Positions 1-62,729 of a stretch of DNA of 64,000 nucleotides are shown one piece after another. The notes under the pieces were generated by a model, which was not told the origin of the DNA, ran no database searches, and worked only from the letters and a program-made list of their open reading frames with translations. Each line of letters starts with the position of its first letter. Positions within the stretch are counted from its first letter, which is position 1. Origin of the DNA: Escherichia coli (GTDB lineage: Bacteria; Pseudomonadota; Gammaproteobacteria; Enterobacterales; Enterobacteriaceae); assembly GCF_013122565.1 (NCBI RefSeq), contig NZ_CP053258.1. One strand, 5' to 3'. Made by a program: the position numbers and the translations under genes.

Positions 1-930
1 CGTGTTGCTACTATCACCCTTAATCCGGCTTATGACCTTGTTGGTTTCTGCCCGGAAATTGAACGCGGCGAAGTGAACCTGGTGAAAACCACCGGTCTGC
101 ATGCGGCGGGTAAAGGCATCAACGTGGCCAAAGTATTAAAAGACCTGGGAATTGATGTCACCGTTGGCGGCTTCCTGGGTAAAGACAATCAGGATGGTTT
201 TCAGCAACTGTTCAGCGAGCTGGGCATTGCCAACCGTTTCCAGGTTGTACAGGGGCGCACCCGAATTAACGTTAAGCTGACGGAAAAAGACGGCGAAGTG
301 ACCGACTTCAACTTCTCGGGTTTTGAAGTCACTCCCGCCGACTGGGAACGCTTTGTGACTGATTCTCTGAGCTGGCTCGGTCAGTTCGATATGGTCTGTG
401 TCAGCGGAAGCTTACCGTCAGGCGTCAGCCCGGAAGCGTTCACCGACTGGATGACTCGCCTGCGTAGTCAGTGCCCTTGCATTATCTTTGATAGTAGCCG
501 TGAAGCGTTAGTAGCAGGTTTGAAAGCGGCACCGTGGTTGGTGAAACCTAACCGCCGCGAGCTGGAAATCTGGGCAGGCCGTAAACTGCCTGAAATGAAA
601 GATGTGATTGAAGCTGCGCATGCGCTGCGTGAACAAGGTATTGCGCATGTTGTTATTTCACTGGGTGCCGAAGGCGCGCTTTGGGTTAATGCCTCCGGCG
701 AATGGATCGCCAAACCACCGTCAGTCGATGTCGTAAGCACCGTTGGCGCAGGGGATTCTATGGTTGGTGGCCTGATTTATGGCTTGCTGATGCGTGAATC
801 CAGTGAACACACACTGCGTCTGGCGACAGCTGTTGCAGCCCTGGCGGTAAGTCAAAGCAATGTGGGTATTACCGATCGTCCGCAGTTGGCCGCAATGATG
901 GCGCGCGTCGACTTACAACCTTTTAACTGA
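1..930 (+). CDS. fruK: 1-phosphofructokinase FruK, 5' end outside window (first ~3 codons missing)
   Basis: Open frame from base 1 (RVATITLNPAYDLVGF...) through ORF-track 73..930; PfkB-family translation matches E. coli FruK from recall; stop TGA 928-930; fruA follows 16 nt downstream. Confidence 0.93.
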   Translation, partial: RVATITLNPAYDLVGFCPEIERGEVNLVKTTGLHAAGKGINVAKVLKDLGIDVTVGGFLGKDNQDGFQQLFSELGIANRFQVVQGRTRINVKLTEKDGEVTDFNFSGFEVTPADWERFVTDSLSWLGQFDMVCVSGSLPSGVSPEAFTDWMTRLRSQCPCIIFDSSREALVAGLKAAPWLVKPNRRELEIWAGRKLPEMKDVIEAAHALREQGIAHVVISLGAEGALWVNASGEWIAKPPSVDVVSTVGAGDSMVGGLIYGLLMRESSEHTLRLATAVAALAVSQSNVGITDRPQLAAMMARVDLQPFN

Positions 931-10606: not shown

Positions 10607-11464
10607 TCAGGCTACCGCTTTTTCAGTTTGTTGCGCTTTCAGCCAGGCGATCTCTTCTGCCCAGATATCCGGGTTGATGGTTTCAAGGATCAGCGGAATG
10701 CCGTCGAAACGGTCATCCTGCATGATCCAGCGGAACGCATCATGACCGATATTGCCTTCACCGAGGCTATGATGGCGGTCAACGCGGCTGCCAAAGGTGC
10801 TTTTCGCATCGTTAAGGTGCATCCCGCGCAGATACTTAAAGCCGACAATACGGGCAAAATCAGCGAACGTTTTCTCGCATTCGGCTGGAGTACGCAAATC
10901 ATACCCGGCAGCGAAAGCATGGCAGGTATCAATGCAGACGCCGACACGGGATTTATCTTCCACGCCGTCGATAATTGCCGCGAGATGTTCGAATTTAAAC
11001 CCTAAGTTACTACCCTGACCGGCGGTGTTTTCAATCACCGCGGTCACACCTTGAGTTTTATCCAGCGCAATGTTGATGGATTCGGCAATACGCGCAAGGC
11101 AATCCTCTTCTGAAATCTGCATCAGATGGCTGCCAGGGTGGAAGTTGAGCAAAGAAAGCTCCAGCTGTTCGCAACGCTGCATTTCATCTATAAAGGCATC
11201 GCGCGATTTTTCCAGAGCTTCAGTGACCGGATGTCCGAGGTTAATCAGATAGCTGTCGTGGGGAAGAATTTGCGCCGATGTGTAGTGATATTTTTCACAG
11301 GCGGCTTTGAATTCATCGATGGTTTGCGTCGTGAGCGGTGCGGCACGCCACTGACGTTGGTTTTTGGTGAACAAGGCAAACGCGGTTGCGTCGATTTCGG
11401 CGGCGCGAATTGCGGCATTTGCCAGACCGCCAGCAGCACTAACGTGCGCTCCAATGTATTTCAT
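10607..11464 (-). CDS. nfo: Endonuclease IV (AP endonuclease)
   Basis: 285-aa [24 protein letters not shown]...; matches Nfo; 2-nt gap to yeiI downstream on the same strand. Confidence 0.95.
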
Positions 11465-11537
11465 GCGAGGACTCCTGTTAAACCCGCTGGAGGAAAACGG
11501 TAATGATAGCGGGTTAACAGGAGCAAGATGTAGTGGT

Positions 11538-12587
11538 TTATGCGATGACGCTTTGAATCACATAGTTAATCGCACCACCACCAACAATCAGCCAGGCAAA
11601 CAGTACCAGTGCCATCAGCAGAGGTTTCGCCCCGGCTTTTTTCAGCGCGCTGACGTGAGTGGTCAGACCCAGCGCCGCCATCGCCATTGCCAGCAGGAAG
11701 GTATCCAGCGTTACCAGCATGTTCACCACGCTCTGCGGTAACAGGTGGAACGAGTTAAAGATGGCAACTACGATGAACAAGATGGCAAACCACGGAATAG
11801 TGATTTTGCTTTTCTCGCCGCTGTTCGCCCCAGACAGCTGTTTAACACGCGCCGCCAGCAGGATGAGGAACGGAGCCAGCATCATCACGCGCAGCATTTT
11901 GGAAATAACTGCTGCGTTTTCCGCATCCGGGCTGATGGCATGACCTGCCGCCACCACCTGCGCCACTTCGTGCACAGTAGAACCAATGTAGATACCGAAA
12001 GTTTCCGGACTAAACCATTGAGACATCAGCGGATATATCGCCGGGTAGAGGAAAATCGCGACGGTCCCGAAGATAACAACGGTTGCAACAGCCACGGTTA
12101 CTTTACTGGCTTCCGCTTTCACTACCGGCTCAGTCGCCAGTACCGCGGCAGCACCACAGATACTGCTACCGGCACCGATCAACCAGCTGGTGTGCTTATC
12201 CAGACCAAACACTTTCTGTCCCAGGAAGCAAGCCAGCAGGAAGGTACTGGACAGCGTCAACACGTCAATGATGATCCCACTGATACCGACATCGGCAATT
12301 TGCGAGAACGTCAGACGGAAGCCATAAAGAATGATACCCAGACGTAATAAATATTGCTTGGCAAACAGCACACCACCGTCACAGCTTTTCCAGATGTGCG
12401 GATAGATGGTGTTGCCTAAAACCATCCCCAACAAAATTGCGAGGGTGAGGGCACTAAACCCGGCACCCGCAACCGCGGGAATGGAACCACCCCACAGGGC
12501 GACCCCGGTGATAACTGCACTCAGGGCTAACCCCGGAATAAAATGCCACAGTGTACGATGTTGTTTCTGTAAGGTGATATTCGTCAT
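11538..12587 (-). CDS. yeiH: UPF0324 inner-membrane protein YeiH
   Basis: 349-aa polytopic membrane ORF matching YeiH; divergent from the LysR-type gene yeiE. Confidence 0.9.
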
Positions 12588-12640
12588 AACCCTCTCCTTT
12601 ATCCGGGCATAAGGTTACGACTAACTGGTTTAAAAATAAA

Positions 12641-12664
12641 ATTGATTATATATTTATAATCAAT
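12641..12664. promoter_or_regulatory. Perfect 24-bp palindrome in the yeiH/yeiE divergent promoter (putative LysR-type YeiE operator)
   Basis: ATTGATTATA-tatt-TATAATCAAT, 10-bp perfect arms; contains TATAAT hexamers on both strands; 22 nt upstream of the yeiE ATG. Confidence 0.45.
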
Positions 12665-12685
12665 CTTTATAAGTGGTAAGCGACT

Positions 12686-13567
12686 ATGCACATCACCCTC
12701 CGGCAGTTGGAAGTTTTTGCAGAAGTATTGAAAAGTGGATCAACCACCCAGGCGTCGGTGATGCTGGCGTTGTCGCAATCAGCAGTGAGCGCAGCCTTGA
12801 CCGACCTGGAAGGGCAGCTTGGCGTTCAACTGTTTGATCGCGTGGGGAAAAGACTGGTTGTTAATGAACACGGGCGGCTGCTCTATCCGCGTGCGTTGGC
12901 ACTGCTTGAACAGGCGGTTGAAATCGAACAACTGTTTCGTGAAGACAACGGCGCGATTCGTATCTATGCCAGTAGTACCATCGGTAACTACATTCTGCCT
13001 GCAGTCATTGCCCGTTATCGCCATGATTATCCGCAGTTGCCGATTGAACTTAGCGTTGGGAACAGCCAGGACGTGATGCAAGCGGTACTGGATTTCCGCG
13101 TTGATATTGGCTTTATTGAAGGACCGTGCCACAGCACTGAAATCATTTCTGAACCGTGGCTGGAAGACGAGCTGGTGGTTTTCGCCGCGCCGACTTCGCC
13201 GTTGGCCCGTGGTCCGGTCACCTTAGAACAGCTGGCCGCTGCGCCGTGGATCCTGCGTGAACGCGGTTCCGGCACGCGAGAGATTGTCGATTATCTGTTG
13301 CTGTCACATTTACCGAAGTTTGAGATGGCGATGGAATTAGGTAACTCCGAGGCAATCAAACATGCGGTGCGTCATGGGTTGGGAATTAGTTGCCTGTCGC
13401 GACGGGTGATTGAAGATCAATTGCAGGCAGGCACATTAAGTGAAGTTGCGGTCCCTCTGCCGCGCCTGATGCGTACGTTGTGGCGTATACATCATCGGCA
13501 AAAACACCTTTCCAACGCGCTACGGCGCTTCCTGGACTATTGCGATCCCGCGAATGTCCCGCGTTAA
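12686..13567 (+). CDS. yeiE: LysR-family transcriptional regulator YeiE
   Basis: 293-aa ORF with N-terminal LysR HTH ([42 protein letters not shown]); matches YeiE. Confidence 0.92.
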
Positions 13568-13771
13568 GTTGCTGTACAAGAACATGCTGGTGCTGTGTCG
13601 ATTTCGTGACGCAGCGCCCTCAGCATGCATTCGCCAGAAAAGAGATTGGCTGCTTTACTTATAATCCCTGGGCGATCATGAAGGTGTCTTATAACCGTGC
13701 ATTTCTGCCGGAAGGATTGCCAATCGTCTGCTACAATCGCGCCTCATTTTTAAGATGGATAGCATTTTTGT

Positions 13772-29771: not shown

Positions 29772-29785
29772 TGTAATTGTGGATA

Positions 29786-29832
29786 TTGCCGGATGCGCTG
29801 CATCCGGCAATCGGTGCCAAATGCCGGATGCG
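29786..29832. repeat. REP element(s) between convergent mglC and preA
   Basis: Perfect palindrome ttgccggatgc-gct-gcatccggcaa, then a second partial gccggatgcg copy. Confidence 0.6.
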
Positions 29833-36907: not shown

Positions 36908-37294
36908 TAGTGGAATCGCAGCTTATCAGAGACAATGAATCGCTTATTCAGCTTCATCATCTTGTTGCGCTCCTTTCATGAACTAAGCCATATATTGCCA
37001 CTGGCGCAAGGAGCGCGCAGGGGGAGGACAATCGCCTCCTCCCCCTGCACCCCCGGGCTCTGGCGAACAAAATCGCCGCTGCGCGGTACCTTCAGCTTAT
37101 CCCCTTCGGCTACCGGGTCGGGCGCGAGGTAACGTCCTTGTAAGACGCGCCCTCAGCCCACATCCATGTGGGCTGTCCCGGCCTTCGGGGAACGCTTCAG
37201 CGATTTTGACGCCACCAACACCGGAGCTGTTTGCAAATCAAGTACACAAAATATCTAGTTCCTGACCTGACAACTTATATGCCATATCTGATTT

Positions 37295-42414: not shown

Positions 42415-42595
42415 TAGGCAGGATAAGGCGTTTACGCCGCATCCGGCATTCGGAGCACAATGCCTGATGCGATGTTTGCGCATCTTATCAGGCCTACAAA
42501 CGTGACGCGTCCGTAGGCAGGATAAGGCGTTCACGCCGCATCCGGCATCCGGTGCACGCTGGCTGATAAGATGCTTGCGCATCTTATCAGGACTC
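42415..42595. repeat. BIME/REP cluster between convergent pbpG and dld
   Basis: Two copies of gcaggataaggcgtt(t/c)acgccgcatccggcat plus repeated gcgcatcttatcagg units. Confidence 0.75.
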
Positions 42596-62496: not shown

Positions 62497-62645
62497 TAAA
62501 ATGATTACATCTTCCATTAATTCACCCGATAACTTTTTTCATATTTATAAATTCATCGATTTTATAATCAACGTACTATTTGGCCGGGATGTGAATAATC
62601 ATGGTGGGCTATTGGCGAAAAATATCTGGAAAGTAGATCGCAGAA

Positions 62646-62729
62646 AATAAAAGAACCTGCTGGTGAGGCAGGTTCTTTTATTTACTACTTTGATGTTAAG
62701 TTACTGATAGTGCAACATGGCATCTCAAC
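62646..62729 (-). ncRNA. orzP: OrzP-like type I antitoxin sRNA
   Basis: Same architecture as orzO: -35 TTGCAA 62759-64, -10 reverse complement of 62736-41, hairpin 62654-62674 plus T-run on the minus strand. Confidence 0.65.

Follow-up and report, generated by a model that had tools for sequence, protein, structure and literature searches.

A conserved inverted repeat between yeiH and yeiE of Escherichia coli as the probable core of the YeiE operator

What is the function of an inverted repeat that lies between the divergent genes yeiH and yeiE of E. coli? The repeat, ATTGATTATA-tatt-TATAATCAAT, occupies positions 12641–12664 of the window (the whole stretch of 64,000 nucleotides that was analyzed). 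To its left is yeiH (11538–12587, minus strand), which encodes a PF03601 inner-membrane protein, a sulfite-resistance determinant and the activated target in this circuit, and to its right is yeiE (12686–13567, plus strand), which encodes a LysR-type, sulfite-binding regulator that represses its own gene. Both genes are so annotated in essentially every complete E. coli genome. The initial annotation of this DNA had seen a perfect 24-bp palindrome and read it as a LysR-type autoregulatory operator, at which the bound regulator would occlude both divergent promoters at once. We propose a YeiE operator with this repeat as its central, high-affinity core, inside a block of about 56 bp (12625–12680), and put the probability of this reading at about 0.7.

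The circuit itself is already published: through the shared spacer YeiE regulates its own gene and activates yeiH. YeiE binds sulfite with micromolar affinity, and in Cronobacter it occupies the cysJI promoter whether sulfite is present or not (PMC8931317). The ChIP-exo study of E. coli YeiE gives over 100 sites (PMC6237786), and a strong ChIP peak at YeiE's own regulatory region is credited to that study by a later paper (PMC12880088). In Salmonella, an EMSA with purified YeiE gave a shift of a fragment, several hundred bp long, that includes the whole spacer, PyeiE was always higher in a yeiE deletion (autorepression), and sulfite raised PyeiE and YeiE protein only if yeiE was present (PMC12880088). 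In the same study PyeiH was undetectable without sulfite and was induced only with yeiE, the yeiE mutant was sulfite-sensitive, yeiH was the main sulfite-resistance determinant, and the authors suspected additional inputs to both genes (PMC12880088). A text search of that paper for a motif, palindrome or binding site came up empty, the Cronobacter paper (PMC8931317) gives no site definition, and in the ChIP-exo paper the motif stands in a figure only (PMC6237786). A text search for mapped yeiE transcription starts in the literature gave nothing useful. Upstream of K-12 cysJ, a reported YeiE target, we found no site like the repeat, the best match having 7 mismatches in 18 positions. The base-level operator, the yeiH core promoter and a polymorphism at position 12661 (see below) are not described in the YeiE literature that we found.

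The two arms of the repeat, ATTGATTATA (12641–12650) and TATAATCAAT (12655–12664), were confirmed as exact 10-nt reverse complements, both by direct reading and by script. The 4-nt repeat spacer TATT is not self-complementary, as A12652 and T12653 are symmetric but T12651 and T12654 are not, and over the whole 24 bp of 12641–12664 11 of 12 pairs match. To call the element a perfect 24-bp palindrome was thus a slight overstatement, with the perfection holding for the arms (10/10). A repeat search extended the arms to 13 nt (12638–12650 and 12655–12667) at 92%, with one further mismatch. The remainder of that description held on inspection: the spacer between yeiH and yeiE measures 98 bp (12588–12685), and each arm carries TATAAT on one strand, the right arm on the plus strand at 12655–12660 and the left arm on the minus strand at 12650 to 12645. 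The GC content of the yeiH/yeiE spacer is 31%, and perfect arms of 10 nt or more, no more than 8 nt apart, occurred in only 0.2–0.3% of its shuffles. The rest of the 64-kb window held no other copy of the repeat with up to three mismatches (0 expected). A scan of the window for perfect inverted repeats whose arms reach 12 nt or more returned 62645–62683 (16-nt arms), 29785–29811 (GCCGGATGC-type), 42563–42590 and 37017–37048.

Conservation was assessed in a scan of one genome per species with YeiE, which gave 80 loci in over 20 genera (among them Escherichia, Citrobacter, Salmonella, Kluyvera, Enterobacter, Kosakonia, Lelliottia, Franconibacter, Pluralibacter and Trabulsiella). The element was present in 79 of the 80 loci. 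In an ungapped alignment of 80 sequences anchored on the repeat element, positions 12637–12651 and 12654–12657 held the same base in every sequence, and the rest of 12637–12665 was at least 96% conserved, 12661 excepted. Taken by arm, the left was 100% invariant in the 80 sequences and the right invariant save for 12661, while neighboring spacer columns dropped to 35–80%. Conserved flanks, CTGG-YTTAAA at 12625–12634 and ATAAsTGGTAAG at 12669–12680, bound a conserved block of 56 bp (12625–12680) that is symmetric about the repeat center at 12652.5. The distance from the element to the yeiE ATG varied from 48 to 197 nt, whereas that on the yeiH side was fixed; ERIC-like insertions lengthen the former in some Citrobacter. 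Judged from this alignment, the repeat is under very strong purifying selection, and its conservation speaks against a chance origin, which we regard as excluded.

The right flank, 12669–12680, contains a GGTWA-like element and was 93–100% conserved at most columns, with the exceptions of 12673, where G and C alternate, and 12680 (88%). The GGTWA element (12675–12679) keeps a fixed offset: in each of the five lineages compared, a variant of it (GGTAAG, GATAAG, GGTTAA or GGTATA) follows the start of the right half by 19 nt, even though between 33 and 137 nt separate it from the yeiE ATG. An outer half-site for YeiE is a possible role of this block, which would lie at about -64 to -75 of yeiH.

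Some further features of the yeiE leaders were observed in these loci. Longer leaders in many Enterobacteriaceae hold a stem-loop in which the conserved GGTAAG(C) pairs with a (G)CTTACC farther downstream across a loop of variable length (carriers include L061, L028, L073, L044, L035, L057, L039, L033 and L042); in E. coli, Enterobacter and Kosakonia its 3′ half is absent, and a relic is left at 12675–12680. The stem-loop suggests that the region is transcribed, and it could be a stabilizer of the 5′ end. In Citrobacter and related loci (L011, L016, L017, L018, L020 and L048) a repeat is inserted between the conserved GTGGTA and the yeiE start; by its end (...TGCAACTCGAATTATTTAGGGTATA) it looks ERIC/IRU-like, and it brings the leader to about 115–195 nt and leaves the operator block intact. 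The metagenome-assembled contig of L080 opens (1–53) with an adapter-like GTCGTCGGCAGCGTCAGATGTGTATAAGAGACAG, presumably an Illumina Nextera adapter, fused to the yeiE leader, so this contig end is probably an artefact.

The one variable arm position, 12661, carries C in the window, the base that completes the arm symmetry, and this is the minority allele. Among the 80 Enterobacteriaceae sequences T was found in 53 and C in 27, alternating among genera; the element in the Salmonella spacer is the same and carries T. In E. coli, T stands at the equivalent position in K-12 MG1655 and in three strains sampled across the match list, which leaves 9 of 10 arm pairs. In K-12 (NC_000913.3) the repeat lies at 2249640–2249663 and the conserved block at about 2249624–2249679. 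Only 16 of 5425 complete E. coli genomes were identical to the window over 12621–12690. The remainder (about 5409/5425) differ over this interval, among the matches listed by exactly one base, and we take them, with K-12, to carry T at 12661, so that the perfect-arm form is a rare allele. Since 12661 toggles between C and T, perfect symmetry is not what selection maintains. As to the source of the DNA, the closest complete E. coli genome showed 99.5% identity over 2.3 kb (window 11400–13700), and YeiE was 100% identical to that of the Escherichia whittamii representative (L001), the spacer of which differs from the window at two positions; these matches indicate a source strain of an uncommon Escherichia lineage.

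Distant relatives were obtained by a search of 50%-identity representatives; another homologous-protein search gave only close relatives. The divergent yeiE/yeiH arrangement recurred in L081, L085, L090, L092 and L094, and the DNA-binding helix LSQSAxSAAL (the predicted recognition helix) is nearly the same across the distant YeiE proteins. In L085 (YeiE 68% identical, divergent PF03601 gene) both arms are intact and the repeat spacer is TTTT. In L092/L093 (53% identical, divergent PF03601 gene) the inner dyad GATTAT-N6-ATAATC is kept, and L090 (52% identical) has an aligned but weaker site, GATAAT-N6-ATAAGT. No clear homologous dyad was found in L094 (49% identical, divergent yeiH). On the yeiH-proximal side of that locus (1439–1446) stands the 8-mer CCACTTAT, the minus strand of window 12669–12676 (ATAAGTGG), in the orientation opposite to that in the window. 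YeiE-like proteins in L086–L089, L095 and L096, where the PF03601 gene is either not adjacent or convergent, were uninformative for the operator. Beside the distant YeiE-like regulator of L096 a divergent membrane protein is encoded (2–862, minus strand), which from reading of its translation we take to resemble TehA/Ssu1-type transporters, and a rhodanese lies upstream of the one in L088 (181–537); these neighbors are possibly sulfur-related. Between the operator and the annotated yeiE-like start of L085 there is a possible 31-codon upstream ORF (1683–1800) with its own Shine-Dalgarno sequence (TAAGGAAG...ATG), which stops just before that start.

How does the repeat stand to the two promoters? 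On the yeiE side, the right-arm TATAAT (12655–12660, plus strand) is the only consensus plus-strand -10 in the spacer, is at least 97% conserved, and is the best candidate for the yeiE -10, with a predicted start near 12667. RpoD genomic SELEX had proposed a yeiE promoter of the form TTAAAA-19-TATAAT (PMC3946193), in which the conserved TTAAAA at 12630–12635 (plus strand) would be a weak -35 at a 19-bp spacing. In the same work RNA polymerase bound the yeiH/yeiE spacer in vitro (PMC3946193). RNA polymerase alone binds the spacer in vitro as RpoD and as RpoS holoenzyme, and this fits a constitutive yeiE promoter that needs repression by YeiE. A promoter scan with 16–18 bp spacing found no complete canonical sigma-70 promoter in the spacer, which fits one activator-dependent promoter plus one whose elements are 19 bp apart.

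On the yeiH side, the bases A12612, T12616 and A12617 (plus strand) were 100% conserved and the three between them varied, which gives a minus-strand TAnnnT, a pattern characteristic of -10 hexamers. In the window this is TAACCT (12612–12617, minus strand), the putative yeiH -10, with a predicted start at about 12604–12606. The TAnnnT recurs with an unchanged 32-nt offset to the dyad in L085 (TAACCT), L092 (TATGCT) and L090 (TACAGT); by our own estimate, three independent coincidences of register have a probability of roughly 1e-5. A register fixed in four lineages is as expected if the dyad positions an activator at the yeiH core promoter. The candidate -35 at 17-bp spacing, TTTATT (12635–12640, minus strand), is conserved and poor, which is consistent with dependence on an activator. 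The predicted yeiH leader would be about 18 nt long and hold a strong, conserved Shine-Dalgarno sequence, AAGGAGAGGG (12590–12599, minus strand). With the putative -10 at 12617 to 12612, the repeat would fall at about -36 to -59 of yeiH, an activator position, with its center at about -47.5 and the conserved block at about -20 to -75.

The other -10-like hexamer that points toward yeiH, the left-arm TATAAT (12645–12650, minus strand), is probably not the sulfite-induced yeiH promoter. TAACCT lies 28–33 nt downstream of it, toward yeiH, and neither reading nor the promoter scan found a usable -35 at 16–18 bp from it. It is also an unlikely yeiH promoter because a LysR-type site placed upstream of it would have to lie within the yeiE leader, the length of which varies.

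These positions bear on what YeiE does at the repeat. Reading it as a LysR-type operator is supported by the divergent arrangement of a LysR-type gene and its target (yeiH minus, yeiE plus, 98 bp apart), by the strong conservation, and by the published binding of YeiE to the intergenic DNA and its autorepression. A part of the repeat in autoregulation is plausible, since the right arm carries the best candidate yeiE -10 and YeiE represses its own promoter in Salmonella (PMC12880088). The simultaneous occlusion of both promoters is not supported by the same Salmonella data: PyeiH was silent without sulfite and uninduced in the yeiE deletion, and the mutant was sulfite-sensitive. An occluded consensus yeiH -10 would be derepressed in the yeiE mutant; no induction was seen, so YeiE activates yeiH and does not only block it. 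The overlap of the repeat with the likely yeiE -10 would explain autorepression, and its place upstream of, and abutting, the yeiH -35 region would explain the sulfite- and YeiE-dependent activation.

A mechanism can be sketched on this basis. Without sulfite, YeiE on the repeat would cover the yeiE -10 (12655–12660) and the predicted start near 12667, and so repress its own gene, and the same complex would sit at about -36 to -59 of an activator-dependent yeiH promoter. The conserved block 12625–12680 would be common to two interdigitated divergent promoters. A sulfite-bound YeiE tetramer may then alter its contacts, like the sliding dimer of other LysR-type regulators, after which RNA polymerase would be recruited to yeiH and the repression of yeiE partly relieved. 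We infer from the sequence that the 24 bp are the bases contacted by YeiE, and likewise the two transcription starts and the architecture of the sub-sites.

Each arm is also a consensus -10, and conservation alone cannot separate an operator from promoter elements. This raises the alternative that the repeat is nothing but two back-to-back consensus -10 hexamers, that its symmetry is a by-product, and that YeiE binds elsewhere in the spacer. The locus does resemble the symmetric bidirectional promoters that are common in E. coli in its pseudo-symmetric AT-rich DNA, its -10 hexamers on both strands and its divergent genes (PMC12825309); RNA polymerase holoenzyme alone binds the spacer, TATAAT is present in both arms, and in L092 too both halves hold -10-like hexamers. 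Its geometry, however, is not that of this class, as the hexamers are separate (a 4-bp gap), the predicted starts lie about 29 bp apart rather than the typical 18, 10 or 23 bp (PMC12825309), and the leftward gene yeiH needs an activator. Moreover, the invariance is not confined to the hexamers but takes in AAAATTG on the left side, AATC on the right side and the TATT spacer, no complete sigma-70 promoter was returned by the scanner, and a separate conserved TAnnnT lies nearer yeiH in a fixed register to the dyad. A consensus yeiH -10 is hard to square with a yeiH that is silent without YeiE and sulfite and with a sulfite-sensitive mutant. On balance we consider an explanation by promoters alone unlikely.

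We give still less weight to the repeat as the site of a second DNA-binding protein, such as a nucleoid protein or some other dimeric regulator, that acts besides YeiE. Further inputs to both genes were suspected in Salmonella (PMC12880088), and the arms do contain TTGAT...ATCAA, the letters of FNR/CRP-family half-sites, and an IHF-like TTGATT/AATCAA core. The spacing of TTGAT and ATCAA is 12 nt, not the 4 nt of a FNR/CRP-family site (TTGAT-N4-ATCAA), and the right half reads ATTAA in 53 of the 80 sequences, so we rejected such a site. No match to the IHF consensus WATCAANNNNTTR with one mismatch or fewer was found in 12620–12690. The element also co-occurs with the yeiE-yeiH pair even at 53% identity, and so tracks the local regulator, not a global factor. 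Very improbable, in our judgment, is a hairpin, either an RNA stem-loop in a leader or a DNA cruciform. The RNA fold has an energy of -9.6 kcal/mol and a z-score of -5.3, but such stability is automatic for any inverted repeat, the stem is almost all A-U, and under the predicted starts (about 12667 rightward, about 12605 leftward) the repeat would not be transcribed. Position 12661 varies without a change in its partner 12644 (G in 80 of 80), a weak point, since G-U is tolerated in RNA. An intrinsic terminator or other structured RNA was rejected for the A-U-rich stem and this variable arm base, and for want of any terminator-like site. The preferred reading of the repeat thus remains the core of a YeiE operator.

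Classical LysR divergent operators with a recognition and an activation site include those of BenM/benA, CbnR/cbnA and IlvY/ilvC, and the four-half-site arrays of OxyR. In the canonical form the box is a 15-bp T-N11-A, the recognition site lies near -65 and the activation site near -35, and autorepression is usually ligand-independent. Like these, yeiE and yeiH form a regulator and target that diverge from a short spacer; an AT-rich dyad would overlap the promoter of the regulator gene (autorepression), and a block of about 56 bp would end near -20 of an activated promoter with a poor -35. In common with them, too, the ligand changes output without abolishing binding, as for YeiE at the Cronobacter cysJI promoter (PMC8931317). 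Unlike them, the strongest dyad would lie at about -47.5 of the predicted yeiH start and not at about -65, and its symmetry is even (arms of 10 nt, spacer of 4 nt), in place of the T-N11-A box. The autorepression by YeiE in Salmonella departs from the usual pattern in being relieved by ligand (PMC12880088).

FinR of P. aeruginosa has been described as a YeiE homolog (PMC12880088). It binds the palindrome TATCCA-N5-TGGATA in the finR-fprA spacer, as found by EMSA, and mutation of one half abolishes binding; a second, overlapping palindrome is present, and the position is -46 to -83 of the target and -22 to -51 of finR (PMC5302815). Both spacers have palindromic DNA between divergent promoters that overlaps the regulator's promoter region, and the GGTAAG element beside the enteric dyad is similar to the FinR half-site TGGATA. 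The enteric palindrome differs in sequence and position, and its target is yeiH where that of FinR is fprA.

The dyad is even-centered, with N10 or N12 between symmetric T and A. A box of 15 bp, ATAA-N7-TTAT with T12657-N11-A12669, shares bases with the right arm, and its outer half is only 64–69% conserved. With regard to the -65/-35 layout, the repeat center falls at about -47.5, and a block at about -20 to -75 would fit a tetramer footprint; by analogy, its 56 bp may correspond to the footprint of a LysR tetramer. One possibility, from reading the AT-rich DNA, is that four half-sites exist, ATAA at 12636, TTAT at 12646, ATAA at 12656 and TTAT at 12667, spaced 10, 10 and 11 bp, in the layout ATAA-N6-TTAT-N6-ATAA-N7-TTAT over 12636–12670; the palindrome noted in the initial annotation would then consist of the two inner half-sites and their flanks. 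In the distant lineages conservation of the outermost half-site is lost. No single register of recognition and activation sub-sites could be assigned from the dyads, as AT-rich DNA allows several and none is conserved in all lineages.

We offer one extension tentatively, as a possible but doubtful model. The repeat would be the center of a four-half-site array (about 12636–12670) on which one YeiE tetramer arbitrates between two mutually exclusive promoters with predicted starts about 62 bp apart. With sulfite the tetramer would move to another register, by which the sensor gene is derepressed and the exporter gene activated, and C or T at 12661 would tune symmetry and the sulfite response between strains. 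If true, such an array would depart from the textbook LysR-type scheme of a fixed -65 recognition site and ligand-independent autorepression.

The general picture of LysR-type regulator action is unchanged by these findings. The candidate operator, the yeiH core promoter and the natural polymorphism are concrete targets for footprinting and promoter mutagenesis, and they could aid sulfite biosensor design. In Salmonella, YeiE and YeiH were recently established as the main defense against sulfite stress, and the genes and the sequence between them are conserved in E. coli and in many other enterics.
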